Shown piece after piece: positions 43,524-63,687 of a DNA stretch of 64,000 nucleotides. The notes under the pieces were generated by a model. That model had not been told where the DNA came from and searched no databases. It saw only the letters and a list, made by a program, of their open reading frames with translations. Position numbers and translations under genes: made by a program. This DNA is from a virus: positions 1 to 64,000 of IMG/VR virus record IMGVR_UViG_3300009523_000001. One strand, written 5' to 3'. Position 1 is the first letter of the stretch, and each line of letters begins with the position of its first letter.

Positions 43524-43703
43524 ATGCGAACACTCATTTGCCGCCGCTGCCACCGGCTCCGCCTTGTCAATGCGACACGCACGTGCGCGGCGTGCGAGAA
43601 GGATCTTCGAGCGCAGGAGCGGCCGCGCGCGGCGGCGGCGCCAGCGCAAGTCGATGGCCCTGCGCCGCCCGGCACCGGGGTCGAGGACGCGACGCACGAC
43701 TAG
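43524..43703 (+). CDS. Small zinc-ribbon protein
   Basis: CRRC...CAAC. Confidence 0.45.
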   Translation: MRTLICRRCHRLRLVNATRTCAACEKDLRAQERPRAAAAPAQVDGPAPPGTGVEDATHD

Positions 43704-44260
43704 CGCGTCGCCGCGTCTTCGAAGAAATAAGCTGTCAGGTCCACGTCCACCCAGCGAAACCCGTGGTCGGTCATGTCCTTCTCCATTTGGGACCGAGACC
43801 ACCCGAACATCTTTCTGCCCTCGAGCGCGCTGACGAGGCCCGTCCGATCGCGGCCGTGCGAGCAGTGGAAAGCGACCACGTAGCCTTGCGTCCATGCGTA
43901 GTGGATGACTTGCACTGCGCCCATGACCTGCTCTACGGACGGTTTGATCAGGACGGACCACGGTTTGTCGTCCTCGGGCGGCATCGGGAATTTGAGAACC
44001 TTCCAGCCGAGCGTGGTGGCAGGATCGTCGGATCCCTCCTCGTCGTCGTTGAGCTTGACGATGACGACCCGCTCGCCGCTCGGGGCGATGCGCGCCGCGA
44101 GCTCCTTCCATGCCGCCTCGTTCGGTGGTTGGCCCATCCGCCACATGCGTGGGGCGAAGGAGACGAGGTTCGGGGTGCCTGCCGGCGTCACGGTCTCGTG
44201 AAACCCGAATCCACATCCGAAGAGGGCCAGGACGGACAGCACGAACCGGGGCAGCTTCAT
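43700..44260 (-). CDS. Tyrosine/dual-specificity phosphatase with lipoprotein signal
   Basis: HCSHGRDRTG (CX5R); N-terminal MKLPRFVLSVLALFGC. Confidence 0.85.
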   Translation of the reverse strand: MKLPRFVLSVLALFGCGFGFHETVTPAGTPNLVSFAPRMWRMGQPPNEAAWKELAARIAPSGERVVIVKLNDDEEGSDDPATTLGWKVLKFPMPPEDDKPWSVLIKPSVEQVMGAVQVIHYAWTQGYVVAFHCSHGRDRTGLVSALEGRKMFGWSRSQMEKDMTDHGFRWVDVDLTAYFFEDAATR

Positions 44261-44312
44261 GGGGTGCACTCCGCGAGGGCGGCCAGCAGCCAGGCCAGCA
44301 ACCGGAGGGGGT

Positions 44313-44720
44313 TCACGGCCTGCCCTCGACCATCGCACGGAAGTAAGGGTTCGTCAGGCCATCGCGGAGTTCTCGGATGCGGCGGACGGCGCGGTCCCGC
44401 GGCACCCCGAGCTCGACGAGCGCCAGGCCCGCAATGACCCCGGAACGGTTGCGGCCCTGCCAGCAAGTAACGATCACGCGATGTCCGATCCGCACATGGT
44501 CCGCCACCGTTCGCGCGGCGCTCCGGATGCGCAGGCGAGTCACCTTGTCCGGCGGGGGCCCATCGTCGAGCGGCACGTGCAGCACGCGGTAGCCGGGCAG
44601 ATCCGGCTGGTATTCCTCGGCCGCGAGCACGACGACGTCGAAGGGGATGCGTGCGCGAGGAGGCGGGGCGCTCCCCTGCGCGAGCCGGCCGCCGGAGAGG
44701 AGGTAGTGGTAGCCGCTCAT
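44313..44720 (-). CDS. Dual-specificity phosphatase (cytoplasmic)
   Basis: PLDD; VTCWQGRNRSG (CX5R). Confidence 0.85.
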   Translation of the reverse strand: MSGYHYLLSGGRLAQGSAPPPRARIPFDVVVLAAEEYQPDLPGYRVLHVPLDDGPPPDKVTRLRIRSAARTVADHVRIGHRVIVTCWQGRNRSGVIAGLALVELGVPRDRAVRRIRELRDGLTNPYFRAMVEGRP

Positions 44721-44740: not shown

Positions 44741-46072
44741 TCAAGAATCGGCGTAGAAGACGCAGTTGTTCGGCGCCTCGAAGAGCAGCACCCAGTCGTT
44801 GTCACCAGCGGCGTTGGTGCCTGGAGTGGCGGCGAACGTGTGGCTGCCCGACGTCCCGAGTGTTCCGTTGACGGCCGATTGCACGCTACCGCTTGTGGGG
44901 TCCATCCAAAAGGCGCCGACGCGACGAGTGAACCCGGATAGGGCAACGGTCAACGATTCATTGGTGGGCACGTAGATGGCGCCCCATGAGCCGTCGGAGG
45001 CTTGCGCAGCGCTCGCGAAAGCGGCCCCGCTGTAGCTGCCGCCGTTGGTCAAGAAGGTGAATCCTGTATCGGGCACGAGGAGCCACCAGGCACGCGAAGC
45101 CATGAGGTTGTTGACGACGTTGCTGCCAAGGGCGCCTGTTGTTCCGAGCAACGTCGGCCAGCTCGTGAGAAACTCCCAGAGCGGCTTTGGGGCCACGGAA
45201 CCGCCGCTACCAAAGGTGTATCCCATTCCTCCGTTGAGTAGCGACTCCCAATTTTCCTGACGAATAAGCTGTTCGGTGCCGGAGTTATCGAACTCGTAGC
45301 AGCTTTCGATCATGAACGACGGTCGTGATTGACCGGTATACGACGACTGCATGTTCGTGTGGATCCACGGATGCCCATTTTGGACATCTGTGTACACACT
45401 GTCTACCGTGAGCCAGGATTGGCCACCCCACTCTGTGCTCGCGTTGGTACCGTCTGCGCAGTGGGCCGTCATCAGATGAGTCGAATCGGCCGCGACGATC
45501 GCGGTCGCTATGGCGATCGTCGAGCTCGTGTCGGCTGGATTATAATCACCGCCCATAACGTAAATAATGTTTGGAAAGCTCGTGTATCTTGACCCGAAGA
45601 AGTTGCCATAGGCTGTTCGTTTAGCACCGCTGTTCGCCTGGAGATCAGTGTACCAGCCTTGGTTACCCCCGTTGAACCCGAGGTATGCTGGGAATAGAAG
45701 TACCATCATTCCGTAGGTCGCGCATGTGTTGATTGCCAAGTCCCACTGATCGAAATAGGCTGTATTCCATGTGGAGAAATCGGCCAATTGGGATCGATTG
45801 GTGTACGTGCTCCCGTCGGTGGCTTTCAAAAACGGCTGATCTCCGTTGAGGTTGGCCGCCGTACTCCCGTCCGGTCCAACGGGCGCCATATACAGCAACG
45901 TGGTGTTGAACCCCCGAGCGATCCGATCCTGCACGTACTGTGTGATGCCGGAGCTATTTAGTGAAATGCCGATGTTCCAACCGGAGTCTCCACGCATCTG
46001 AAACGGTACTCCGAATTGATCGACAAGATACCGTTTTCCAGTAGGGATGACGAGTGGAAATCTGCTTGCCAT
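44741..46072 (-). CDS. GH140/apiosidase-like (DUF4038) glycoside hydrolase with C-terminal collagen-binding-like domain; probable virion receptor-binding enzyme
   Basis: RYLVD..G.PF...GD..W, RGFN, PNIIY.MGGD, IES.YE, W.DP..G, DWVLL; lower GC than flanks. Confidence 0.75.
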   Translation of the reverse strand: MASRFPLVIPTGKRYLVDQFGVPFQMRGDSGWNIGISLNSSGITQYVQDRIARGFNTTLLYMAPVGPDGSTAANLNGDQPFLKATDGSTYTNRSQLADFSTWNTAYFDQWDLAINTCATYGMMVLLFPAYLGFNGGNQGWYTDLQANSGAKRTAYGNFFGSRYTSFPNIIYVMGGDYNPADTSSTIAIATAIVAADSTHLMTAHCADGTNASTEWGGQSWLTVDSVYTDVQNGHPWIHTNMQSSYTGQSRPSFMIESCYEFDNSGTEQLIRQENWESLLNGGMGYTFGSGGSVAPKPLWEFLTSWPTLLGTTGALGSNVVNNLMASRAWWLLVPDTGFTFLTNGGSYSGAAFASAAQASDGSWGAIYVPTNESLTVALSGFTRRVGAFWMDPTSGSVQSAVNGTLGTSGSHTFAATPGTNAAGDNDWVLLFEAPNNCVFYADS

Positions 46073-46758: not shown

Positions 46759-47133
46759 CTATCCGAAGTTGGGGCTTAGGATTCCCCAGTAATTCGTCCC
46801 GTCCCACTTGAAGGTGATGATGTCCACAGCGGCCGCTGTGCTCGTCAGCGTCGGCGCCGCGCTTCCGGTCCACTTGACCGTGCCCGGCCACGTCGCCGTG
46901 AATCCACCGTTCTGGGTGAGGTAGATCGTCAAGTTCTCGTTGGTGACAGGGCCGATGGGGGCGGTGAATACGAACGTGCACGTAGCACTAAGGGTGATCT
47001 TGTGGGTCGCCCCCTTCGTCCAGTCGACTGTGAAGTTCGCACCCGAGTTCCCGTCGGCGACGGGAGCTGCTTGCCCGACGGCCAACGCGTTGGCGAGCGT
47101 GGCGTTGACGATGGGGGTAGCGGGAGCGGCCAT
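46759..47133 (-). CDS. Tail-fibre-like domain protein
   Basis: VDWTKG...WPGTVKW.G..APTLTST..AVDII.F..DGTNYWG. Confidence 0.7.
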   Translation of the reverse strand: MAAPATPIVNATLANALAVGQAAPVADGNSGANFTVDWTKGATHKITLSATCTFVFTAPIGPVTNENLTIYLTQNGGFTATWPGTVKWTGSAAPTLTSTAAAVDIITFKWDGTNYWGILSPNFG

Positions 47134-47137
47134 ATTT

Positions 47138-49308
<2,171 letters not shown>

Positions 49309-49364
49309 GTCGTCGCAGTGCGCGAGATGGGCATACCGCGGGATGCCCAGCGGAGGCCGCTAAC

Positions 49365-49511
49365 TCATGGAATCGGCGGCTGTGTTCGCGATGCAGCCTT
49401 CGCGAGCCGCTCAAGCTGCGCTTCGTCGAGCGTGGCTCGGAGGGCGACTGCGCGGGGATTGGTTTCGTCCAACGGCTGCATGCGCGGCGGGATGTACGGT
49501 CGGCGGATCAT
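49365..49511 (-). CDS. Possible 48-aa peptide
   Basis: GGAAGAG before ATG; MIRRPYIPPRMQPL... Confidence 0.3.
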   Translation of the reverse strand: MIRRPYIPPRMQPLDETNPRAVALRATLDEAQLERLAKAASRTQPPIP

Positions 49512-49567
49512 GGCAGTCTCTTCCACGGAGGAGAACGTACCACCGGTCGCCGGCGGCGGGGTAGCGG

Positions 49568-49597
49568 TTGCGCGCCTCACGGCCGCTCAGGTAGTCT
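49568..49597 (+). promoter_or_regulatory. Promoter for tmRNA
   Basis: TTGCGC-N18-TAGTCT, 10 nt upstream of the mature 5' end. Confidence 0.6.
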
Positions 49598-49607
49598 TCT
49601 CCCATTC

Positions 49608-49965
49608 GGGGTCGAAAGGATTCGACGGAGGAGAAGAACAGTCGTCTGCGTGCGACCGGCGCTCGACCCGGTCTTGATCAAGCGAGCCGTTTTTATCTGC
49701 GAACGACAACGCGCACCTCATCGCGGCCTAGAAATCCGCGGTGCGTCCCGGCAGCGAGGATCTCGAGTACCTGCCGGGGCGTCAATACACGAGACAGACA
49801 GCGCCCAGCCATCGGGTGGCTGAGGACTTCAGGGTGGCCGAGCGGCGGAATGCTCGCACGCGAAACACCGCGAGGCCGTCGGGAGCCTCAGACCGACTAC
49901 GCACGTGAAGAGGATGATTGCGGCGCTCTTGCGGACCGGGCTCTCGGATGCCCGCGACTCCACCA
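49608..49965 (+). ncRNA. ssrA: tmRNA (transfer-messenger RNA), tag ANDNAHLIAA
   Basis: Acceptor stem GGGGTCG/CGACTCC with G3-U70 pair, discriminator A and encoded CCA; 5' GGATTCGAC motif; helix 2 CAGTCGTC-TGCGTGCG pairs with CGCACGTG..GATGATTG; tag ORF 49699-49731. Confidence 0.93.
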
Positions 49966-50076
49966 AGGCTGGTCAGCGCGAACGCATGGAGAAGAGCGAA
50001 TGCAACCCGTGGGAGGCCCCGTAAAGGGGCCGTTACCACCACGGCCGTCGCTCTCATGGGGTAGGGTGGCCAATTC

Positions 50077-50301
50077 ATGCCTTGGGCGAAGGAGATCACG
50101 CGCAAGCTGTCCTGCATCATCTGCGGGGAACCGATCACGGCTTACTCGACCACCTCGCCGCATCCGGAGGCCCCCGAGATGGTCCAGCTCCTCTCCGACC
50201 AGGCGTGGATCGGCATCGAGGGTCCTGCGTACGAGGGTGAATCGCCGAAGTTGCTCGTCGTGTGCTCGGTAAGGTGCCTAGACGAACTGCTTGAGGAGTG
50301 A
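50077..50301 (+). CDS. Small zinc-binding hypothetical protein
   Basis: CIICG...CSVRC. Confidence 0.55.
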   Translation: MPWAKEITRKLSCIICGEPITAYSTTSPHPEAPEMVQLLSDQAWIGIEGPAYEGESPKLLVVCSVRCLDELLEE

Positions 50302-50302
50302 C

Positions 50303-51177
50303 TTAGAACTGCTCACGCGGCAAGCCGTGGAATCGCTCGTAGTGTGCCATCCATGACTCGAGCTCCGCCCGCGTCATCGATCCCTGCCCTCGGCAGCCGC
50401 CCCACACGCGGGACGGACACCCTTCGAAGGTGTGCTCCCCGCAGCAGCAGCCGCACCCCGCCATTTCGCAGAGCCGGTCGACGTCGCCGGCCCACATCGC
50501 TTCCTCGAGCTCGCGCGCGAATGCTTGTTCGTCGCCTTCGCGGCCGGCGAGCCGCACGGCCTCTTCGAACGCCCACGGGTGATCGCGCAGCAGTGAGTTC
50601 ACCCTAGACCTCGCACGTGCAGACATACCCGCACGACCAGCACTCGAACCACCACCAGACTTCCGAGTCCATCGCGTCCACTGCCTCTCTTCGTGCGTGT
50701 GCGAGCTCCACGAAGGACACGGGGGACGGCCGATCGCAGCAGCATCGGATGCGGCAGCGGCGCCCACCGCGTGAACGGCTCATGGCAGTGGGATCTCCCG
50801 AACGCGACTCGCGACCGCCGCGAGGGTTTGCGCCAGATTGCGCATCTCGTCGCCGGTTAGCCGGCGCTCGGTGAAGAGGCGTTTGGCTGCGCGCTCCACG
50901 ATGGCGACGTCGGTTTCTTCGACAAGGTACTGCCTCACCACGACAGCTCCCGCGTGTACGCCTGGAGCTGCGGCTCGAACCGTCCGAGCAGGATGCGCGC
51001 AGGCGTCGTCGTCGTTCGCCCGCACCACGGGCAGGTGCCGGCGCGCGCGAGCTCTGCGGCGCGCTCGCGACCCATGAGGTTGTCCCACCCGCGCGCCGTT
51101 CGGTTGCAGAGCAGGCCGAGTGCGGTCTCCGTTTGCTTGCGACAGCAAGGGCACCGTCCATTTCCCCATTCGCTCAT
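50303..51177 (-). other. Small hypothetical genes (50303-50602, 50780-50938, 50935-51177)
   Basis: Protein-like translations, Cys-rich, partial coupling. Confidence 0.5.
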
Positions 51178-52017: not shown

Positions 52018-52398
52018 TCACCAATCCGGTGTGCGGCGGATTAGGTCGACCAACGAGTCCAGGCCAATCGGCTTGCCGAGCATGATGTGGTGCAGCCCCT
52101 CGAAGGCGTTCTCTCTCGCCTTGGAACGGACGTCCTCGGGAGGCATGGCGCTCGTGATGATGATCGGGATCTCCTTCCATTTGTCGTCGTTTCGCATCAG
52201 CCGCGCGACGTCGATCCCGGAGAGCTCCATCTCTCCGGGGTCGATGTCGAGCAAGACCAACTCCGGCGATTCGCCGGCGAGCAGGCGCACGGCTCCGGCG
52301 CAGGTGGACGTGGAGGACACGTCGTGGCCGCATCCACGGAGAAACGTGGCGAGCGCCTGACGGGTGGATGGATCGTCTTCGACGATGAGGATCCTCAT
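52018..52398 (-). CDS. Single-domain response regulator (CheY-like receiver)
   Basis: RILIVEDD, LVLLDI, IPIIITSA, KP; AAGGAG RBS. Confidence 0.9.
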   Translation of the reverse strand: MRILIVEDDPSTRQALATFLRGCGHDVSSTSTCAGAVRLLAGESPELVLLDIDPGEMELSGIDVARLMRNDDKWKEIPIIITSAMPPEDVRSKARENAFEGLHHIMLGKPIGLDSLVDLIRRTPDW

Positions 52399-52474
52399 CT
52401 CCTTGATTCTGTCAGAAAAAAGCCCACCCGGACACCATGTCCAGGCGGGCTCCAGGCTGCGAAGATCCGGAAAG

Positions 52475-53161
52475 CTAAGGCGCGGTAGCGCCCGCAGCAA
52501 TCCCCGGCGCCGGATGCGCTGCGAGCCACTTTGCGCAATCGGGGTACCCGGTCCACGGATGGTTCTTCGGCAACGACCACGACGAAGTCGGCTCGTGGAC
52601 GAGCATGTCAAGCGCGGTTGCCGCGCTGAACCGATCGGCATGGTCTCGTCGTTCCCAAATCTGCCAGTATCCAGCGGCTTTTCCGTTGTCTTGGTCGCCG
52701 AGTTTCGACGGGTTGCTCGAGATTCGTGTCTCCTTGTGTGCGATGCATGCGAGCGTCACCGCGTACTTCCATGCCGCATCCGGTCCGAACTGCGCCAGCT
52801 CCCCGGCCCGCGCCCGCACGGCGCCGAGCACGTCGTGGGTGAAGGCGTCGAGCCGCACCGTGCGTGTCGCCGTTGGCTCTCCACCCACCCGAATCCCGCG
52901 ACTGACATGCGGCGTGTCCATGTAGGCGTCGCTCAGTTGCTCGACCCGCCCGCGCAGCGGCGCGAACCACGGGTCGTCCTCTGGTTGTGACGGTTGTGCA
53001 ACGGGCGGTTCGACCGTCGGCGGCGTGTCGATGGTGGCGGTTTGGGCTGCTGGTTCGGCTGTGGGTGGCGGCGATCCCGCGTGAACCGAGGGGGTCGCGA
53101 GCGGGATCGTGAGACCCGCCAAACAGAGTGTGAGACCGAGTAGCAGGGTTGTTTTCAGCAT
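52475..53161 (-). CDS. Secreted protein with lytic-transglycosylase-like domain
   Basis: Signal peptide, Pro-rich linker, IAHKETR...DNGKAAGYWQI. Confidence 0.55.
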   Translation of the reverse strand: MLKTTLLLGLTLCLAGLTIPLATPSVHAGSPPPTAEPAAQTATIDTPPTVEPPVAQPSQPEDDPWFAPLRGRVEQLSDAYMDTPHVSRGIRVGGEPTATRTVRLDAFTHDVLGAVRARAGELAQFGPDAAWKYAVTLACIAHKETRISSNPSKLGDQDNGKAAGYWQIWERRDHADRFSAATALDMLVHEPTSSWSLPKNHPWTGYPDCAKWLAAHPAPGIAAGATAP

Positions 53162-55657: not shown

Positions 55658-58600
55658 TCAAGTCTGGGTCGAGATGAGGCGATCGACGGCGGCTGAATCG
55701 AAGAACGCCAGGTGCGCCGAGGCGTCGTTCACCCCGAAGCTGACCACCAACCGATCGCCGTCGCGAGCCAACCCGGCGGCGAATTCGATGCCCTTGCGCT
55801 CGAAGTAAAACGGCTCGGAGATGCTCCGGATCTCGAGCTTCTCGGTCAGCCGGACGAACCGGTGAAGGTAGATCCGTCCAGGGGTGTGGACGACCTCGTG
55901 CACGAGGCAGAGGAAACTGTCTCCGTGCGGGATGACCTGCGATCCGCCGCGCAGCTCAGTCAGATTTTCGTCAAGATCGGTGATGCGGAACCGCTCGGTG
56001 GTTTTCTCCGGCGCGCAGTCGATCACGATCGTTGGGTCGCACAGGTAGAGGAAACTGCCGGGTTGCCCGAGGATCGGCATCCAGTTCTTCTGCGCGCGGT
56101 CGTGCTCGTAGTCGCGAATGACGCGGACGTCCGTGATCTTCCACTCGTGGTCGATCGTGAGAATGCACTGTTCGCATCGTCCATCGCCTAGATCGCGGAC
56201 GACGGCCGACGCGCGAAACTTGTCGCCGTCGAGCCAGAGCCGGCAGTCCTCGAACCCTTCGACCGGGTAGCTCGTACGCGGGAGGCCTGTCGCGTCGGTC
56301 AGGAGTGTGGGCGATCCGGTCGGCTTCCACGTCTTGTTCATCTCGAGGATCCAGTTTTTGGTGCGGATGATGCCGCTGCCGTCGATCGTGGGGTACTGCC
56401 CCTCGGCGACCGTGTAGTTCACGGTGCGGACCAGCACGAGCCGCCGGTCGCCCACGACGAGCACCGACGGGTTCATCGGCGCGTACCCATCGTCCGATTT
56501 CCAGTCGATCGCGCGCAGCTCGGCGCCGCAGAGCTCGCGCGCGGTCTTGACGTAGTGAACGAAATTCCCTCGGGCCTCGCCGCGCACGTTGGCGTCCCGG
56601 TCGATGGTCAGTCGGGCGCACGCGTCGTAGCCGGCCTGCCGGCGCGCGGGGAGCTTGCTGTAGAACCCGCTGATGGCGACATCGGGCGCGTTTTTGCGTT
56701 CGTAGACATCCTTCTCGACGAAGAGGATTTCGTCCGGGCAGGGCATCCGTGCGACCTGTTCGGCGAGGAGGATCGCCGCATCGCTCTTGCCGTGCTCGCG
56801 CCACCACCGCGCGAGCAGCGCCAGCGGTTCCGCGCGGGTGGGTCGGAAGTTGTAGGCGTCGAAGCAGGCGAGGACGAGCGCCGGCTCGTCGTTCAACGCG
56901 GCATGGCTGCGCGCGATGCCGTAGTGCGATGCCCAGACTTCTTCGTCCCACCCGCCGGCGGCAATCCGGCGCGTGTACCACTGGATGGCCTCCTGCTGCC
57001 GTCCCATCTCGCGGTAGGTGTTCGCGAGGTAGAACATATAACGGGCGTTGTCCGGCTCCCGGGTGAGGCCGTCCATGAGCAGGCGGATGTCCCGATCGCC
57101 CTTGTCGCCCTTCGACCCGCCGTCGTTGCGGTCGTCGATGGAGCACGAGTCGAGGTTCGGCGGGGTGTCGCCGGGAACAGAGAGAAACTCGTGAGTGACG
57201 CCGACGTACTGCGCGACCACGTCGCGCCGAACGAGCCGCGTATTCCAGTAGTGAAGGGCTCCGGTCAACTGCTGGAGCCGGTACGCGGGCGCGGTGAGCG
57301 CCCGCTTGTCCAGCGACCCCCGGAGCACCATGTCGGCGTCGATAAGCAGGGCGTAGTCCCATCCGTCGTACGCTCGTGCTGCCTCGAGCGACTCGTTTCT
57401 GGCCTGGGCGAAGTTCTTGAACGTGGTGCGGACCAATTTGCCGGGGACTTGGTGCTCTTTGAAAAACCGCTGGATCGTCTCGAATGTCCCGTCGGTCGAT
57501 CCGGTGTCGGTGATGACCCACTTGTCGATGAAGGGCAGCGCGGCCGAGAGGCACCGCTCGATGATGGCGCTCTCGTTCTTGACGATCATCACGAGGCAGA
57601 TCCGGGTGACCGTCGATTTCTCCTCCTTGTGCTTGCCGCGGGCGGCGGTGGCACGGCGTTCAAGCCGATTCATGGGGGTGTCTCCGTCACGTGGAATATC
57701 GATGATGCTGTCGTCGTGGTCGGCCTGGTACCAGTCGAACCGCTGGCCCTCTCGTTCCATCTCAGCCCAGGTGTTGACCTCCCAGGTGATCTGCTGCATC
57801 CGCCGGAAAACGGCGTGGTAGCGCTCGACGAGCTCGGGGATCGATTCGCGGTCGACGAGCAGAAAGCCACCGCAGAATCGCCAGTTCACGTCGTCGTCGG
57901 TCGCGCGCGCTGCGGCGGTCTCCTTATTCCAGCAGCCCGGTGCAAGTACGCATACAGACGGGGGATGGAGCGCACGCAGTCGGTCGAGGAAGCTCGCCGG
58001 ATTCTTGACGACCTTCATCACCGCGAAGTCGATCCAGGCGAAATGCGAAGAGGAGTCGTCGAGCTCGCGGGCGAGCGCAAGGAGATCGAGCTTGGCGTTG
58101 ATGAGCAAGAGGGAACCGCGCGCGTCCTTTTCTGACGAGCGGGTGCCCGGAAGCGTTCGGGTGCCGTCGTCGTGCTGGAACGGCCACAACGATTCGAGGT
58201 CGGTCAGTTCCACTTGAACGTTCGGGTGCTTGGGCGCTCGCTCGGCGAGCTGCCGGTCGAGAAAGAGGAGGATCGGCAGGCCGCTCGCGGCGAGCTCGGA
58301 GAACCATCGAAAATACGCGTCTTCGTCCACGGTTCGATCCCGCAGCCGGAAGAACGCTGAGACAAAACGGGTGCTGGAGATCGGACGTTTCAGCAGGGTG
58401 AGCACATCATCCATCCGGGTCGGTCTTTCGGGACGTTTCTTCTGAGACGATCCGCGCTCTCTGGCGAGTGCGTGGAGCCGCTCGTTCCACTCAACGCCCT
58501 CGCGGGTCACCATCTCCGCGAGCTCCGGCAGCCGACTCGAGCTGACCTTTTCCGCGTGCCATGCGACGACGTCGCGCAACGTGACCGATTGGAAGCCCGC

Positions 58601-60358
58601 TTCGGCGAGCACGGTTTGGATCCACGTGTCGCCGTACCAGAGGCGCAGCTCCGGCGGGATCGGGAACGCGATCGTGACCGCTTCCCGTGTCAGGGCGAAA
58701 AACGCTCCGGCCGTGTGCTTTGGGTCGTTGGTCGATTCTCCGGACGGCCGCACGGCGCCGGCGGCTTCGGCTTCGGTGCCGACCCGTCGACCCACCCAGA
58801 CCTCTCGCCGGCCGCGCGCGCGGTCGAACCGCTGGAGCAGCGATGAAGACCATCCTGGACTGACGACGAGGTCGGCGTTCGCAATGACGAGGATCTCGGC
58901 GTTCGACTCGAGAAACCGTGCGGCAAGCTGATTCCAGGCGGGGTTGACGTAGACGTTCTCCGGATTGCGCAGGACCGTAATGGTGGCCCCCATTTCGTCG
59001 AGCGCCGATTTGACAGCCGGCGCGCCGCCGTTGTCGATCGCCACGACGTCGACCCCCGGCTCGCAGAACGACCGGAGCGCGCGCACGAGGAGATCGTGAT
59101 CCTCCGCGAAGCACGGTACGCCGAGTACGATGCGGGTGCGCTGGGTGCGCGTCAGCACCGTGAGGCCGTTGTTGTTGTGCAGGCGGACCTCGATCCCCCA
59201 TTCCGGATGCGCCGCAATGAATTCTTCGACCGCGGGCCAGAGGCCGGGACCGACGTCGCCCTCGTCGCGGGTGCCGTAGGTCTCCGTGTCGTGCAGCACG
59301 ATGTGCTTGCGTACTTTCGGTCCGTGCAGGGCGAGCTCCTGCCGGAGCTGCGCGTAGGTGTGGATCGTGTCGATGAACAGAAGATCGGTCTCGTCGATGC
59401 CGACCGACAGCGAGCTCACTCGCTGGAAATCAAAATCGATCCCCGCTTCTGTGGCCACCTTCTTCTGAAGATTCACCTTGTCCCGGATGTCGTAACAGCG
59501 CATCCGCTTCGGCCGGCCGTGGAGCAGACCCCATGTCGACAGACCGACCCCCAACTCCGTCACGCGTTCGCAGTCTTTGGCGTACATCGAGAGCATCGGG
59601 ATGTGCTCGTGGATGTCCGACGGGGTGTCCCGGGCAGCGACGTACTGGCGTTCGATCTCTCCAAGACTTCTGCAGGCTTTGCTGAGCCGAGACCACGCAA
59701 CCCGGTCGTGCGCCGTCATGGAATGAAACTCGGGCACGTGGCCGCCGCTGACGAATCCCTCGTGCCACACGGCCATGCCGTAAAGCGTTCGCTGCCGAAA
59801 GCCAGCCTCCGAGAGCAGCGAATGGATCCAGTCATCGCCGCAGTGGATGAGCAGCTCCGGCGGGATCGGGAACGCGATGGACACCGCCTCCCGCGTCATT
59901 GCAAAGAAGGCGCCGCTGACCGATCGGCCCGACGAACCATCGACCGTATCGATGGATGCGGTCTGCGCGCGCGAGGCTTCGTTCACGCTCGAGAGGGCTC
60001 GTCCGAACCAGAACTCTCGGTCGCCCTTGGACCGCGAGTGGTCGCGGCGCAGCAGCAGGGAGGCGGACCAGTGAGGGGCTGCGATGAGGTCCGCGTTCGC
60101 GAGGACGAGGATCTCCGAGTCGGATGCGAGGAAATGCGCGGCAAGCTGGTTCCACGCCGGGTTCACGTAGATGTTCGTTGGGTTGCGGAGGATTTCGATG
60201 GACGGTTCCATTTCGGCCAGCACGGCCTTCACGTCGGTCGCCGCACCGTTGTCCACGGCCACGACGGCGACCTCGTCCTCCAGGAAGGATCGAAGGGCGC
60301 GCGTCAGCAGCTCGCGAGGCTCCGCGAAGCAGGGGACACCCAGCAAGATGCGCGGCAT
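55658..60358 (-). CDS. Giant multi-enzyme fusion: GT2-like + SAM methyltransferase + GT2-like + HtrL/YibB-like GT + GT2-TPR + beta-propeller glycosidase-like domain
   Basis: Two VA(V/I)DNG..N.YVNPAWNQ..NAD domains; DLLFIDT.H.Y; FAWIDF..WRFCGGF; MIVKNE..DTGSTD..IDAD; EDCRL, KNWMP, LRGG, IEFAAGL. Confidence 0.85.
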   Translation of the reverse strand: MPRILLGVPCFAEPRELLTRALRSFLEDEVAVVAVDNGAATDVKAVLAEMEPSIEILRNPTNIYVNPAWNQLAAHFLASDSEILVLANADLIAAPHWSASLLLRRDHSRSKGDREFWFGRALSSVNEASRAQTASIDTVDGSSGRSVSGAFFAMTREAVSIAFPIPPELLIHCGDDWIHSLLSEAGFRQRTLYGMAVWHEGFVSGGHVPEFHSMTAHDRVAWSRLSKACRSLGEIERQYVAARDTPSDIHEHIPMLSMYAKDCERVTELGVGLSTWGLLHGRPKRMRCYDIRDKVNLQKKVATEAGIDFDFQRVSSLSVGIDETDLLFIDTIHTYAQLRQELALHGPKVRKHIVLHDTETYGTRDEGDVGPGLWPAVEEFIAAHPEWGIEVRLHNNNGLTVLTRTQRTRIVLGVPCFAEDHDLLVRALRSFCEPGVDVVAIDNGGAPAVKSALDEMGATITVLRNPENVYVNPAWNQLAARFLESNAEILVIANADLVVSPGWSSSLLQRFDRARGRREVWVGRRVGTEAEAAGAVRPSGESTNDPKHTAGAFFALTREAVTIAFPIPPELRLWYGDTWIQTVLAEAGFQSVTLRDVVAWHAEKVSSSRLPELAEMVTREGVEWNERLHALARERGSSQKKRPERPTRMDDVLTLLKRPISSTRFVSAFFRLRDRTVDEDAYFRWFSELAASGLPILLFLDRQLAERAPKHPNVQVELTDLESLWPFQHDDGTRTLPGTRSSEKDARGSLLLINAKLDLLALARELDDSSSHFAWIDFAVMKVVKNPASFLDRLRALHPPSVCVLAPGCWNKETAAARATDDDVNWRFCGGFLLVDRESIPELVERYHAVFRRMQQITWEVNTWAEMEREGQRFDWYQADHDDSIIDIPRDGDTPMNRLERRATAARGKHKEEKSTVTRICLVMIVKNESAIIERCLSAALPFIDKWVITDTGSTDGTFETIQRFFKEHQVPGKLVRTTFKNFAQARNESLEAARAYDGWDYALLIDADMVLRGSLDKRALTAPAYRLQQLTGALHYWNTRLVRRDVVAQYVGVTHEFLSVPGDTPPNLDSCSIDDRNDGGSKGDKGDRDIRLLMDGLTREPDNARYMFYLANTYREMGRQQEAIQWYTRRIAAGGWDEEVWASHYGIARSHAALNDEPALVLACFDAYNFRPTRAEPLALLARWWREHGKSDAAILLAEQVARMPCPDEILFVEKDVYERKNAPDVAISGFYSKLPARRQAGYDACARLTIDRDANVRGEARGNFVHYVKTARELCGAELRAIDWKSDDGYAPMNPSVLVVGDRRLVLVRTVNYTVAEGQYPTIDGSGIIRTKNWILEMNKTWKPTGSPTLLTDATGLPRTSYPVEGFEDCRLWLDGDKFRASAVVRDLGDGRCEQCILTIDHEWKITDVRVIRDYEHDRAQKNWMPILGQPGSFLYLCDPTIVIDCAPEKTTERFRITDLDENLTELRGGSQVIPHGDSFLCLVHEVVHTPGRIYLHRFVRLTEKLEIRSISEPFYFERKGIEFAAGLARDGDRLVVSFGVNDASAHLAFFDSAAVDRLISTQT

Positions 60359-61611
60359 CACGAAGCTCGGAAAATGAGGACGTTGTCCCCGTACCACGGC
60401 ATTCGAGTGAGTTTCGTCCACTCGGCTTTCACGGCGGCAGTCCTCGTTTCGTCAACCGAGAAGCCCTCCGCGCCGAACTTCGTGATCCAGTACGTCGGCG
60501 GTTGGCAATTGATATGATCGTGGCCCCCTTGGCCGATCGGTGCGGCTGTCAGCAGGATCGAACCACCCGGCGCGCATGCCCTGCAGAGCTTGCACACGAG
60601 CGTGTCTGCGTCCTCTACCGGCAGGTGCTCGGCCACCTCCATGCACGTCACGAGGTCGTAGGGAGGCGACGCCCCAAAGGCCGCATCGCCCGCCGTGATG
60701 TCCTCCTGCCATAGGTAAAGTCGGACGGCGGCGTCTGCCCGGTCGAAGGCGGCCGTGGAGCCTTCTAGCCCCCACGCATCCACGCCCAGTTCGCGCAATC
60801 GGCCCACGAATTGCCCCGGACCGGCCCCCACGTCGAGGACCCTCTGGGGCGAGAGCAGACGAAAGACCATCTCTGCGGCGGTTCGGATGTCCGCTTTCTG
60901 GAGACCCTGGTATGCGTCGAAGAAGTGGGCGTCGTAGATGCCGTCCAGGTTGCGGCGCGAACGGTGGTAACTCGCCAGGCGCGGGTACCTGCGCTTGCTC
61001 CGGAAGAACCGATCCGCCGCCAAGGTGGGCGCTCCTCCGGAAGGGTCGGTTCCGGATTCCCCGTACATGACCAAGACGTCCTCGACCCACCGCGTGCGGT
61101 CCCATCCCGCCATCTCGACCATCGGGAACATCGTGGCGTGATCGACCGCGCGTCCTGTCCATGTGCCGTCCGGGAGCTTCAGGTCGGAGGGGTCGATGCG
61201 CTGGAAGAGGCCTGCCCGGAACGTCTTCAGGTGCGAGCACCGCCACGGGGCCGTACGCACGTCTTCGTCCGGTGCGTAGGGGGCGTTCGTCGCGTGGGTG
61301 CGACCGTCCTCGGTCGCGAAGGACCCGTAGGTGAGCCACACGGCCGGGTCCTCATAGAGGCGGGCGATTCGCGCCGCAACGGTCGTGTGCGCAAACCAGT
61401 CGTCCCCGTCAAGCTGCAAGACAACGGCATCCGGATCGAGGTCAGAAACCGAGTCGACGAGGTTCTCCGAGTGCGTCTTCGGAGTCGGCTGCGACGCGGC
61501 TTCGATGAAGATGTGCCGCACCGGGACCGTCTGGGCTGCGACCGAGTGGCGGCATCGGTCGGTGGGCGACGCGCGAAAGCAAGTCGAGACGACAACAAGT
61601 TGCGCGCTCAT
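60358..61611 (-). CDS. GT2 glycosyltransferase fused to class I SAM methyltransferase
   Basis: LDGDDW, WLTYGS, SHLKTFR; VLDVGAGPG, EVAEH, GQGG..HIN. Confidence 0.85.
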   Translation of the reverse strand: MSAQLVVVSTCFRASPTDRCRHSVAAQTVPVRHIFIEAASQPTPKTHSENLVDSVSDLDPDAVVLQLDGDDWFAHTTVAARIARLYEDPAVWLTYGSFATEDGRTHATNAPYAPDEDVRTAPWRCSHLKTFRAGLFQRIDPSDLKLPDGTWTGRAVDHATMFPMVEMAGWDRTRWVEDVLVMYGESGTDPSGGAPTLAADRFFRSKRRYPRLASYHRSRRNLDGIYDAHFFDAYQGLQKADIRTAAEMVFRLLSPQRVLDVGAGPGQFVGRLRELGVDAWGLEGSTAAFDRADAAVRLYLWQEDITAGDAAFGASPPYDLVTCMEVAEHLPVEDADTLVCKLCRACAPGGSILLTAAPIGQGGHDHINCQPPTYWITKFGAEGFSVDETRTAAVKAEWTKLTRMPWYGDNVLIFRAS

Positions 61612-62159
61612 GGCACCTCGACGTACCACACCGGGTAATAGAGCCCGTTTGTGAATTGGCTTCCGCGCCAGATGTTGAAATGATCAAACGCTTCGATAAC
61701 GGCTCGAACCAGGCCGGGATACTCCCAGGTGAAATCGTGCCCCGCGAGGACCCCGCCCGATTTGATCTTCGGACCCCAGGCAACGATGTCATTCTGGACA
61801 TCCGAATGTTCATGGCCGGCGTCGAGGAACACGAAGTCGAGAGACTTATCGGCGTAGAAGCTGGCCGCTTCCCAGGATGCGCCGAGATGCACCTGATCGA
61901 TTGCATGCGCGATCGGATCGAGCGCGCGGCGGATTCCGTCCGTGCCCAGGTCGTTGAACCCCTGATCCACGAGATCGAGCGTGGCGCCCTTGTCGGCGCG
62001 AGAGAGCTCCACACCGAGAAACGCCGCGCTCCGACCGGCAAAGACCCCCACCTCGACGCAGCGTGCCTTCTCTGGCACTCGCTTGGCAATCCAGGCGTAG
62101 AAGTCTTCGAACGTAAAGTACCCAGGCAGGGTTTTGTAGAAGTGCTCGATCGTTTTCAT
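61608..62159 (-). CDS. Class I SAM methyltransferase (Methyltransf_24-like)
   Basis: VEVGVFAGRS, SLDFVFLDAGH, GGVLAGHD. Confidence 0.88.
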   Translation of the reverse strand: MKTIEHFYKTLPGYFTFEDFYAWIAKRVPEKARCVEVGVFAGRSAAFLGVELSRADKGATLDLVDQGFNDLGTDGIRRALDPIAHAIDQVHLGASWEAASFYADKSLDFVFLDAGHEHSDVQNDIVAWGPKIKSGGVLAGHDFTWEYPGLVRAVIEAFDHFNIWRGSQFTNGLYYPVWYVEVP

Positions 62160-62725
62160 AACCGAACGCACCAGCAGGGGAAGAAGTGCCCCTGCATCTG
62201 CGCATCTCCACCGTCGGTGATCCCGGGCCAGACCTCGAAGCGGGCGAACCGCTCGTTGACGGCACGGACGACGCCGAACTCTGGATTCTGCCAGTGGATG
62301 TAGTCGTGTCCGGCGAGCAGGCCACCCTTTTTGACCTTGGGTCGCCATGCGTCAATGTCTCTGGAGATGCTATCGCGGTCGTGGTTCGCGTCGAGGAAGA
62401 CGAAGTCGAGCGACTCATCGGGATAACGGGCTGCGACATTCCACGAGCAACCCTTTTGGATTCTCCACGCCACGGGAATCTTGGCGAGCCGGCCCATCAC
62501 GGTTTCTGGAGGGCTGTCGTGAAACTGGTCGACGAGATCCACCTGAGCCGAGACGCCTCGGTTGACCAGCTCCACCCCCAAGAAGGCGGCGGATTGCCCG
62601 TGGTAGATGCCGACCTCCACGAGGTGCGGCGACGGCTTGCCGATCATCTCTCCGGCCACCCACGCGTAGAAGTCCGGGAACGTGAAGAAGCCCGGGATCT
62701 CTTTGAAATAGTGCTCCATGCCCAT
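62156..62725 (-). CDS. Class I SAM methyltransferase (paralogue of 61608-62159)
   Basis: VEVGIYHGQS, SLDFVFLDANH, GGLLAGHD. Confidence 0.88.
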   Translation of the reverse strand: MGMEHYFKEIPGFFTFPDFYAWVAGEMIGKPSPHLVEVGIYHGQSAAFLGVELVNRGVSAQVDLVDQFHDSPPETVMGRLAKIPVAWRIQKGCSWNVAARYPDESLDFVFLDANHDRDSISRDIDAWRPKVKKGGLLAGHDYIHWQNPEFGVVRAVNERFARFEVWPGITDGGDAQMQGHFFPCWCVRL

Positions 62726-63687
62726 CAGCCTCCGAACACTTCGCGGGCGATCTCGGTTACGGCGAGCTGCACCGCTTCATCGGACGAGCGAGTCACGCGA
62801 AACCCGAGCGCCGCCAACTTGTCCGGCTTCAGGCACGAGTGGGGGACGTCCCCTCGCCACCCTTGCACGTCCGTGCCGAACGCGATGCGCGCGGACGGGT
62901 TCGGCGAGGCCGCAACGCACAGCTCGGCAATCCGCGCCACGCTCGTCGAGTTGGGCGGCGCAATGTTGTAGATTGCCGGCCGTAGCGCTCCACCCTGTGT
63001 GTGATCGAGCACGAAGAGCAAGCCCGCCACGCAGTCGCGGACGTGCAGGTACGGCTTGGACTGGTGGCCGTCGCCGAGCACGTCGAGATGGTCTGGATGA
63101 TCCTTGAGCTTCTTGCAGAAATCGAGAAGGACGCCGTGCGTGCCACGCGAGCCCACGACGTTGCCAAACCGACAGATAACCCCTTCGAGGGCGAAGCACT
63201 CCACGAAGGCGGCGAGCATCGCCTCGCTCGCGAGCTTGCTGGCGCCGTAGAGCGAGATGGGCAGGTGCCCGAGATCCCGTTCTCCGCACGGAACAGAGAC
63301 GTTGCCGTACACGGTTCCGCTCGACGCGAGCACGAATCGCTTCACGCAGCCGAGGCGGGCGGCCTCGAGCGCGTTGTACGTGGCGATCGTCCCCTGTTCG
63401 AGGTCGAGCCGGGTGTTCGTGAGGCCGTGGCGCGCTTCGGGGTTGGCGGCGAGATGGAAGACGACGTCGTGACCCTGCATGGCCACAGCGAGCGCAGGCA
63501 AGTCGAGTGCATCCCCGCACACAAGGGTCGCCCGGCCGGAAGCGATCGGTTCGGCGAGAAACGCCGACTTGCCGACGCTCAGGTTGTCGAACACGGTGAC
63601 GGGACCGCGCTCGACGAGCTGGTCCACCAGGTGGCTTCCGATGAAGCCGGCGCCGCCGATGACGAACGAATGCACTCTTTTACCCAT
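62725..63687 (-). CDS. NAD-dependent epimerase/dehydratase (UDP-glucose 4-epimerase-like)
   Basis: GGAGFIG, SSGTVYG, YGASK, RFGNVVG. Confidence 0.92.
   Translation of the reverse strand: MGKRVHSFVIGGAGFIGSHLVDQLVERGPVTVFDNLSVGKSAFLAEPIASGRATLVCGDALDLPALAVAMQGHDVVFHLAANPEARHGLTNTRLDLEQGTIATYNALEAARLGCVKRFVLASSGTVYGNVSVPCGERDLGHLPISLYGASKLASEAMLAAFVECFALEGVICRFGNVVGSRGTHGVLLDFCKKLKDHPDHLDVLGDGHQSKPYLHVRDCVAGLLFVLDHTQGGALRPAIYNIAPPNSTSVARIAELCVAASPNPSARIAFGTDVQGWRGDVPHSCLKPDKLAALGFRVTRSSDEAVQLAVTEIAREVFGG

Follow-up and report, generated by a model that had tools for sequence, protein, structure and literature searches.

A phage-borne transfer-messenger RNA, probably functional, with an eight-nucleotide T-loop that recurs in viral contigs

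The DNA analysed here (the window) is the first 64 kb of a 117,665 bp IMG/VR virus record, IMGVR_UViG_3300009523_000001, a virus contig rated 100% complete by CheckV, and it carries a gene for transfer-messenger RNA (tmRNA). A first-pass annotation of the sequence had proposed a complete one-piece tmRNA, and the Rfam covariance model RF00023 matched over its full length (model positions 1–374/374) at exactly the proposed boundaries on the plus strand, with 68.9 bits against a gathering score of 47 and an E-value of 9.7e-25. No other Rfam family exceeded its own threshold in the window. The alanine-type acceptor was borne out on reading the sequence, with a stem of seven base pairs (GGGGTCG/CGACTCC), the G3.U70 wobble, discriminator A and an encoded CCA, and the proposed tag ANDNAHLIAA is present as an open frame which follows the resume codon GCG and ends in a hydrophobic residue and Ala-Ala. 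The coordinates of these elements and of the neighbouring genes are collected in Table 1.

The T-arm, also as first described, reads GGAC-CGGGC-TCTCGGAT-GCCCG and folds at −12.4 kcal/mol. In place of a 7-nt loop of the T-psi-C type it has an 8-nt loop closed by a C:G pair, on a stem that still counts 5 bp, and the loop keeps the UC dinucleotide and the purine after it (T-N-TC-R-N-AT). A 7-nt loop is typical of tmRNAs and demanded by ARAGORN, but it does not define function, as loop sequences vary between cellular lineages. The whole-model score, acceptor and tag of the window gene are those of a tmRNA, and we therefore read it as a variant within the tmRNA family. Pseudoknots PK1–PK4 were placed by the Rfam alignment, with low posterior probability across PK2–PK4. 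The stretch before the resume codon, described as U-rich, is so in the window (GCCGTTTTTATCT), but its closest relative reads GCAACGTTCGATT and the U-richness is therefore not conserved. The claim of an own promoter found no support: a sigma-70 consensus scan of 49250–50350 returned no site, and the sole upstream element shared with the related phage is a hexamer (TAGTCT/TAGGCT). Terminator scoring made no intrinsic-terminator call for the hairpin downstream of the gene (50015–50031).

Table 1. Elements of the tmRNA gene and neighbouring features, in window coordinates
Feature	Position	Strand	Basis
tmRNA gene (ssrA-like), one-piece, 358 nt, CCA encoded	49608..49965	+	RF00023; 81% identity over 450 nt to related phage copy
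Acceptor stem, 5′ strand GGGGTCG; G3 as G.U with T at 49959	49608..49614	+	pairs with 49955–49961
D-loop analogue: 3-nt spacer AAA (49615–49617), then GGATTCGAC	49615..49626	+	1-nt deletion there in Rfam alignment
Tag frame GCG AAC GAC AAC GCG CAC CTC ATC GCG GCC TAG (ANDNAHLIAA, stop)	49699..49731	+	translation
T-arm: GGAC, stem CGGGC (49937–49941), loop TCTCGGAT (49942–49949), stem GCCCG (49950–49954)	49933..49954	+	sequence, fold
Acceptor 3′ strand CGACTCC, discriminator A, CCA	49955..49965	+	sequence and pair table
TAGTCT hexamer, 11–16 nt upstream of G1; possible −10-like element	49592..49597	+	aligned with TAGGCT of related phage
Hairpin GGCCCC-GTAAA-GGGGCC, ~50 nt downstream, no T-run; possible 3′ processing or termination element	50015..50031	+	fold
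Tail fibre protein, 701 aa, upstream neighbour	47138..49243	-	PHROGs, best phrog_6320, E 3.6e-37
Tail-fibre ORF upstream	46759..47220	-	PHROGs
Apiosidase-like glycoside hydrolase, nearest enzyme to tmRNA	44741–46072		Pfam/PHROGs annotation
Sugar-modification block downstream of tmRNA	55658–63687	-	Pfam/PHROGs

A sequencing error in the T-loop can be excluded, since contigs from three studies (peat X7, soil X9 and lake water X10) that span 49932–49965 carry an identical T-arm, with zero substitutions or indels listed, and since the same loop recurs in other viral contigs. The expectation that standard scanners might miss such a gene was right for ARAGORN and wrong for Infernal with Rfam, which detects it. 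ARAGORN made no call in the window, and none on the excised region at default, -ps or -ps80 settings. The models that it returned at -ps60 were permuted or shifted and were rejected as wrong; ANDNAHLIAA was nevertheless read inside one such wrong gene model. Among loci of the 8-nt class described below with flanks of 380 nt or more on each side, 3/73 were recognised by ARAGORN as tmRNA, as opposed to 6/9 controls with 7-nt loops, while covariance-model searches do recover 8-nt-loop tmRNAs.

The 22-nt arm of the window was found unchanged in one other viral contig (160.7 kb), as part of a tmRNA that scores 132.9 bits and has a very different body. A search of IMG/VR with GGAC-N5-TCTCGGAT-N12-ACCA, in which the stem and the closing pair were left free (pattern 1), returned 32 viral loci, 26 of them with a perfect 5/5 T-stem in nine different stem sequences, and the closing pair was C:G or T:A in 26/26. 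Rfam recognised a tmRNA at every stem-valid locus submitted, with the exception of L050 (no match), and gave no match for three pattern 1 loci lacking a paired stem. The architectures assigned by Rfam to the class comprise the standard one-piece form as well as permuted two-piece forms of the alpha and beta type.

A second pattern, GGAC-N4-Y-TNTCRNAT-R-N9-CCACCA, left loop positions 2 and 6 free in order to avoid conservation by construction. It produced 94 viral loci, 92 with perfect stems, whose loops were TATCGTAT (49 loci), TCTCGGAT (26), TATCATAT (8), TTTCGAAT (7) and TCTCAGAT (2). Across 44 distinct arm-plus-acceptor sequences, positions 2 and 6 were Watson-Crick partners in 92/92 loci (A:T in 57, C:G in 28 and T:A in 7); the window falls within this class with its TCTCGGAT loop, C2:G6 and a C:G closing pair. 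Because TTTCGAAT equals the canonical TTCGAAT with one extra T at the 5′ side, the simplest reading is that the 8-nt loop represents a standard T-loop to which a single base has been added, leaving the intraloop pair (54.58 in inferred tRNA numbering) free to covary. An open sample, in which any 17–18 nt were allowed between GGAC and CATCTCC-ACCA, contained at least 76 stem-valid loci with 7-nt loops and at least six with 8-nt loops. Some class members adjoin tRNA genes, as in phage tRNA arrays (L064:534-982, with three in a row, L059:723-796 and L057:964-1033).

Sequenced phage isolates offered no further members. BLASTN of the window tmRNA against 50,697 phage records gave no match, and searches of phage records with four other class representatives (L207, L192, L195 and L203) found no isolate with an 8-nt loop: L192 retrieved tRNAs only, L203 nothing, L195 a 43-nt match in Xanthomonas phage Kintu, and L207 the tmRNA of phage FpV4, which has a canonical loop. 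The FpV4 tmRNA, which recurs in a group of Flavobacterium psychrophilum phages, is itself unannotated (RF00023, 58.2 bits, L283:501-915); it lies at ~81.7–82.4 kb on the reverse strand of KT876724.1, has a TTCGACT loop and no encoded CCA, and is missed by ARAGORN.

The unusual T-loop is accompanied by a change in the D-loop analogue, measured as the length of the spacer that leads from the acceptor 5′ strand to the GG of GGNUUYGA. From 93 loci with valid 8-nt arms (the window and L189–L282), the acceptor 5′ strand could be located in 82, most of the remaining 11 having short flanks. The spacer was 3 nt in 80/82 located loci, including the window (AAA), 4 nt in L244 and an ambiguous 10-nt match in the last. 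By comparison, 22 unique tmRNAs with 7-nt loops, of which 20 were cellular (18 Pseudomonadota of 20 fetched, one Acidobacteriota and one Rubrivivax) and two came from phages FpV4 and Melnitz, had spacers of 4 nt in 17 cases, 5 nt in three, 6 nt in one and 3 nt in one. For viral tmRNAs with canonical 7-nt loops, 82 loci could be located among 112 valid arms; 12 had a spacer of 3 nt, 50 one of 4 nt and 20 one of 5 nt. The short spacer (80/82 in the 8-nt class versus 12/82 in viral 7-nt-loop tmRNAs) therefore tracks the 8-nt loop and not viral origin.

The changes in the T-loop, the D-loop and the closing pair may be described as a coordinated remodelling of the elbow, the region in which the two loops dock, and the recurrence of the loop class together with the short D-loop points to a structurally coherent redesign rather than an ad hoc escape mutation. 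The variant elbow combines an 8-base T-loop, in which positions 2 and 6 are predicted to pair, a pyrimidine:purine closing pair where the standard is G:C, and a D-loop analogue shorter by one base. It recurs in ~90 viral contigs, in both one-piece and two-piece tmRNAs. Within the class the D-loop motif itself is often GGGATCGAC, GGAATCGAC or GGTATCGAC and not the usual GGATTCGAC (L203, L208, L215, L257 and many permuted members), which may be a further co-variation with loop type. A pairing of GGAUUCGA with the T-loop suggested by RNAalifold was rejected as an energy-minimisation artefact, the canonical loop TTCGAAT having equal complementarity.

An 8-nt T-loop with a short D-loop might simply be the normal elbow of one or more unsampled bacterial lineages, copied by phages, in which case the gene would still work and the variant would say nothing about phage biology. 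Searches of cellular genomes bear on this directly. The exact 18-nt T-arm had 30 matches across one genome per species (185,579 species), none with a tmRNA 3′ end. A pattern restricted to TCTCGGAT, run on 401 Alphaproteobacteria and on 401 members of the class to which Rubrivivax belongs, gave one match, without a T-stem. With the general 8-nt pattern, 1,099 distinct cellular genomes yielded nothing tmRNA-like, its sole match (unpublished genome G1051) lacking a T-stem. An analogous canonical pattern, used as a positive control, was found in 43/61 Pseudomonadota genomes; those that it missed appear, from their identifiers, to be Alphaproteobacteria. The 1,099 genomes comprised Pseudomonadota (401), Actinomycetota (301), Bacteroidota (151), Acidobacteriota (71), Bacillota (46), and Verrucomicrobiota, Planctomycetota and Chloroflexota (43 each), with phylum names inferred from the record titles of centre genomes. 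This sample represents 1,099 of ~200,000 species, with Patescibacteria and Cyanobacteria among the groups left out.

Cellular T-loops specific to a lineage do exist, which lends the idea of a bacterial origin some plausibility: three readable tmRNA 3′ ends of alphaproteobacterial hosts have the form GGAC-CCGGG-GGCRGWA-CCCGG, and phage Melnitz has a loop of the same type. Bacterial genes with an 8-nt loop could also be under-recorded, the candidates of the tmRNA database being ARAGORN and BLASTN hits according to the available part of its description (PMC11915505). However, the GGCRGWA loop of the alphaproteobacterial hosts is not the one seen in alpha-type viral tmRNAs, whose loops have 8 nt, and the class spans standard, alpha-type and beta-type permuted forms, so that several host lineages with the same elbow would be needed. 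We regard a bacterial origin of the elbow as a serious but still rather doubtful alternative.

The position of the gene in the record was considered next to the possibility that a host ssrA gene had been caught at a prophage–chromosome junction in a mixed phage/host record. tmRNA genes are frequent integration sites (PMC11915505, in the part available), the record encodes an integrase, and the downstream glycosyltransferases, methyltransferases, epimerase and response-regulator receiver could be read as cellular. Yet the tmRNA lies at 49.6 kb of 117.7 kb, and phage-type genes occur on both sides of it. Directly upstream are two minus-strand tail-fibre ORFs (PHROGs), in agreement with the phage fibre genes of the first-pass annotation; the lysis genes also named there were not confirmed, as neither PHROGs nor Pfam gave a lysis-gene match near the tmRNA. 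The record further encodes a DNA polymerase exonuclease subunit, an exonuclease, a helicase, a DNA repair protein, a transposase and a DNA methyltransferase, and downstream of the tmRNA an HNH endonuclease, a baseplate-hub-like protein and the integrase (record 99818–100717). The latter, of which the first-pass annotation had seen none nearby, is ~50 kb away from the tmRNA. Just 3/26 large ORFs of the record have a Pfam family, most of those on both sides of the tmRNA being without one, as would suit a novel phage rather than a chromosome.

The strongest evidence on this point comes from a related viral record, G811 (124,600 bp, direct terminal repeats, 100% complete), in which the tmRNA is 81% identical over 450 nt and segments on both flanks are 65–81% identical to those in the window. 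As the tmRNA and both flanks lie inside this terminally repeated genome, the gene is not a host ssrA at an attachment junction, and flanks made of host chromosome are ruled out. Its T-arm, moreover, was seen as part of a tmRNA in no cellular genome searched. The junction explanation is largely refuted and retains hardly any credibility.

No tRNA genes were found in the 117.7 kb record. Two routes to the host were tried and rejected: by protein similarity, the best helicase match to an isolate reached 37.5% identity and a 599-aa ORF had no match; and the body of the tmRNA showed no special similarity to the Acidobacteriota or Rubrivivax tmRNAs compared. The integrase and a transposase-like ORF, both far from the tmRNA (record 99818–105046), suggest a phage that is possibly temperate or that possibly harbours an insertion element.

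Maintenance of the gene was assessed by co-folding the window tmRNA with the G811 copy (two sequences). Four helix pairs differ by compensatory changes on both sides: two in the acceptor (5:356, UA to AU, and 6:355, CG to UA, window versus G811), one in P2 (35:316, U-A to C-G) and one in the first pseudoknot stem (49:64, C-G to G-C), the acceptor retaining 7/7 pairs in both phages. Identity between the two copies was 94% in the 5′ tRNA-like part, 85% in P2b–PK1, 93% in PK2–PK4 (where consequently no covariation can be read), 81% in the P2 3′ strand and 91% in the T-arm and acceptor, and fell to 33% in the pre-resume stretch, 52% in the tag frame and 48% after the tag. The G811 tag, ANDNGNTDHTAKVAA followed by a stop, differs from ANDNAHLIAA in length and sequence, but in each phage the tag frame has stayed open, begins with ANDN and closes on a hydrophobic residue and Ala-Ala. 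Conserved helices combined with a fast-changing tag are the pattern expected of a working tmRNA, not of a pseudogene.

These comparisons also bear on whether the locus could be a remnant (decaying, or without coding function), for instance a pseudogene or an attP-type copy, which is no longer charged and adds no tag. Its rejection by ARAGORN, the modest Rfam score and the lack of a recognisable promoter would suit a remnant, and so would the integrase of the record; integrases of this kind often target tmRNA 3′ ends. An attP copy, however, needs the 3′ part only, and this locus has the gene in full: its acceptor is paired, G3.U70 and CCA are in place, and its tag frame is open. The compensatory changes between two diverged phages, and two tag frames that have stayed open despite divergence, indicate that the tmRNA has been maintained, and PK2–PK4 are 93% identical compared with 65–81% for the neighbouring DNA. 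A remnant is accordingly highly improbable.

Metagenomic contigs from soil (X9) and lake water (X10) match the window at 49645–49740 up to the first tag codons and then diverge, one of them continuing, in our reading, as ANDNALAVAA and a stop. This is a hint, suggestive at most, of a population of related phage tmRNAs with differing tags. A subfamily pattern run on metagenome contigs had one match, which fell by chance inside a coding region.

Collectively, we read the locus as a genuine phage-borne tmRNA that is probably functional, with a probability of about 0.72. What has been observed directly is the identity of the gene, its location in phage DNA, the compensatory conservation of its helices, the loop class with its covariation, the link to the D-loop and the absence of SmpB. 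Several points weigh against this reading. The RF00023 score is modest and the posterior probabilities across PK2–PK4 are low; the sigma-70 scan offered no promoter site; the covariation between the two phages amounts to four pairs from just two sequences of one subfamily, and the T-stem of the related phage has one mismatch (CTGGC/GCCCG). In the class as a whole, the covariation of positions 2 and 6 derives from three loop types and hence from few independent events, while GGAC, CC-ACCA and, in pattern 2 only, the Y:R closing pair were fixed by the search pattern. Expression, charging, tagging, proteolysis and a benefit to the phage are steps that we infer. A look for RNA sequencing runs that contain the stretch found none listed, which is no evidence either way on expression.

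Were this gene to work as proposed, it would be transcribed during infection and matured in the manner of a host tmRNA, with RNase P forming the 5′ end and CCA already encoded, and the host alanyl-tRNA synthetase would charge it with alanine through G3.U70. Host SmpB and EF-Tu would then bring it to stalled ribosomes. The reliance on host SmpB is expected because the phage has no smpB of its own: in accordance with the first-pass annotation, which saw no smpB nearby, there were zero SmpB (PF01668) matches across the whole 117.7 kb record. Likewise, SmpB was present in 0/17 other large records that carry class members (8 of the 17 at least 90% complete, three with terminal repeats), and RNAs of the class would therefore have to use host SmpB. 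Translation would resume on the tmRNA frame and append (A)ANDNAHLIAA to the unfinished protein, freeing the ribosome and marking the protein for host proteases. The most likely gain for the phage would be a continued supply of usable ribosomes at a time when nucleases of host and phage are cutting up mRNA. Neither toxins nor defence genes were found in association with the tmRNA, and the earlier ideas, that it counters RNase-type toxins and that the altered loop evades host nucleases or modification enzymes, are speculation.

Two stronger readings would give the elbow a role of its own in infection. According to the first, the rebuilt elbow would favour this tmRNA in competition for limiting host SmpB or on the ribosome, and the phage would thereby seize or dampen trans-translation in its host and put its own tag in place of the host tag. 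It draws on the fact that a phage without SmpB must use the host pool, on the elbow being the part altered in a coordinated way, on the tag region being the fastest-changing part among relatives, and on a precedent, as the tmRNA-like RNA of mycobacteriophage DS6A is reported to inhibit endogenous tmRNA in E. coli (PMC11915505, in the part available). On the other hand, the tag resembles an ordinary degradation tag (ANDN...IAA), and the coordinated elbow changes could equally be neutral compensation. We judge takeover by competition to be improbable.

The second and broader proposal is that the elbow is a virus-specific redesign, kept across one-piece and two-piece phage tmRNAs because it alters the handling of the RNA in the infected cell. 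It might, for example, exceed the host tmRNA in binding to limiting host SmpB, or go unrecognised by a host enzyme that reads the standard T-loop, be it a nuclease or the m5U54/psi55 modification enzymes. If true, phages could take over ribosome rescue and protein tagging, but we consider a virus-specific function of this kind unlikely.

The remaining genes near the tmRNA are partly unusual for a phage. The sugar-modification block downstream comprises a 1,587-aa protein with several family-2 glycosyltransferase domains and TPR repeats, three proteins with SAM-methyltransferase domains and one NAD-dependent epimerase/dehydratase; this is unusual phage cargo, which may serve modification of the virion or of the host surface. 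Closer to the tmRNA, a phage ORF at 52018–52641 on the minus strand has a response-regulator receiver domain (PF00072, E 4.7e-13). At 43700–44720, also on the minus strand, two adjacent or overlapping ORFs show weak matches, below or near the Pfam cut-offs, to tyrosine or dual-specificity phosphatases, and one of the two is conserved in G811.

Several observations on phage tmRNAs provide a setting for this gene. tmRNAs were called by ARAGORN in 402/18,146 phage genomes (~2.3%), with proposed roles in keeping the hijacked translation machinery running or in protein tagging (PMC9004378, in the part available). Given that ARAGORN finds only 3/73 class loci and that, in the available parts of both reports, the two phage surveys (PMC9004378 and PMC7162821) relied on ARAGORN, published figures for how often phages carry tmRNA are probably too low. 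A literature search in a limited library found no description of an enlarged tmRNA T-loop. The variant, with one base more in the T-loop, one base less in the D-loop, a reversed closing pair and a covarying intraloop pair, offers trans-translation research a natural double-mutant cycle, by which one could ask how SmpB, EF-Tu, the ribosome and the processing and modification enzymes read the elbow. Should it prove to occur in viruses alone, it would be a rare example of a universal translation RNA adapted in a phage-specific way.

Compared with the standard bacterial tmRNA (SsrA, RF00023, acting with SmpB), the window gene shares the full-length model match, the 7-bp acceptor with G3.U70, discriminator A and CCA, the GGAUUCGAC D-loop analogue, the long P2, the first pseudoknot stem, the GCG resume codon and an ANDN...Ala-Ala tag. 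It differs in its 8-nt TCTCGGAT loop with C:G closing (the standard being 7 nt, TTCRANY, with G:C), in a spacer of 3 nt instead of the usual 4, in the U-rich pre-resume stretch and in its location in a phage genome without smpB; its elbow was not seen in the cellular tmRNAs compared. Like the window phage, the large Methylophilales phage Melnitz has a complete tmRNA, with no SmpB requirement stated in the part of the report available (PMC9004378). The Melnitz tmRNA, however, is a two-piece molecule with the 7-nt alphaproteobacterial loop GGCAGTA and G:C closing, and was found by ARAGORN, unlike most of the window class. The tmRNAs of huge phages (PMC7162821) are similar in that translation-rescue genes occur in large uncultured phages; as far as the accessible part of that survey goes, those were ARAGORN calls accompanied by SmpB, whereas the window phage and the 17 class records lack it. 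Phage-encoded tmRNAs as such are thus known, and what sets this one apart is the elbow variant, with its 8-nt loop, covarying intraloop pair, reversed closing pair and short D-loop.

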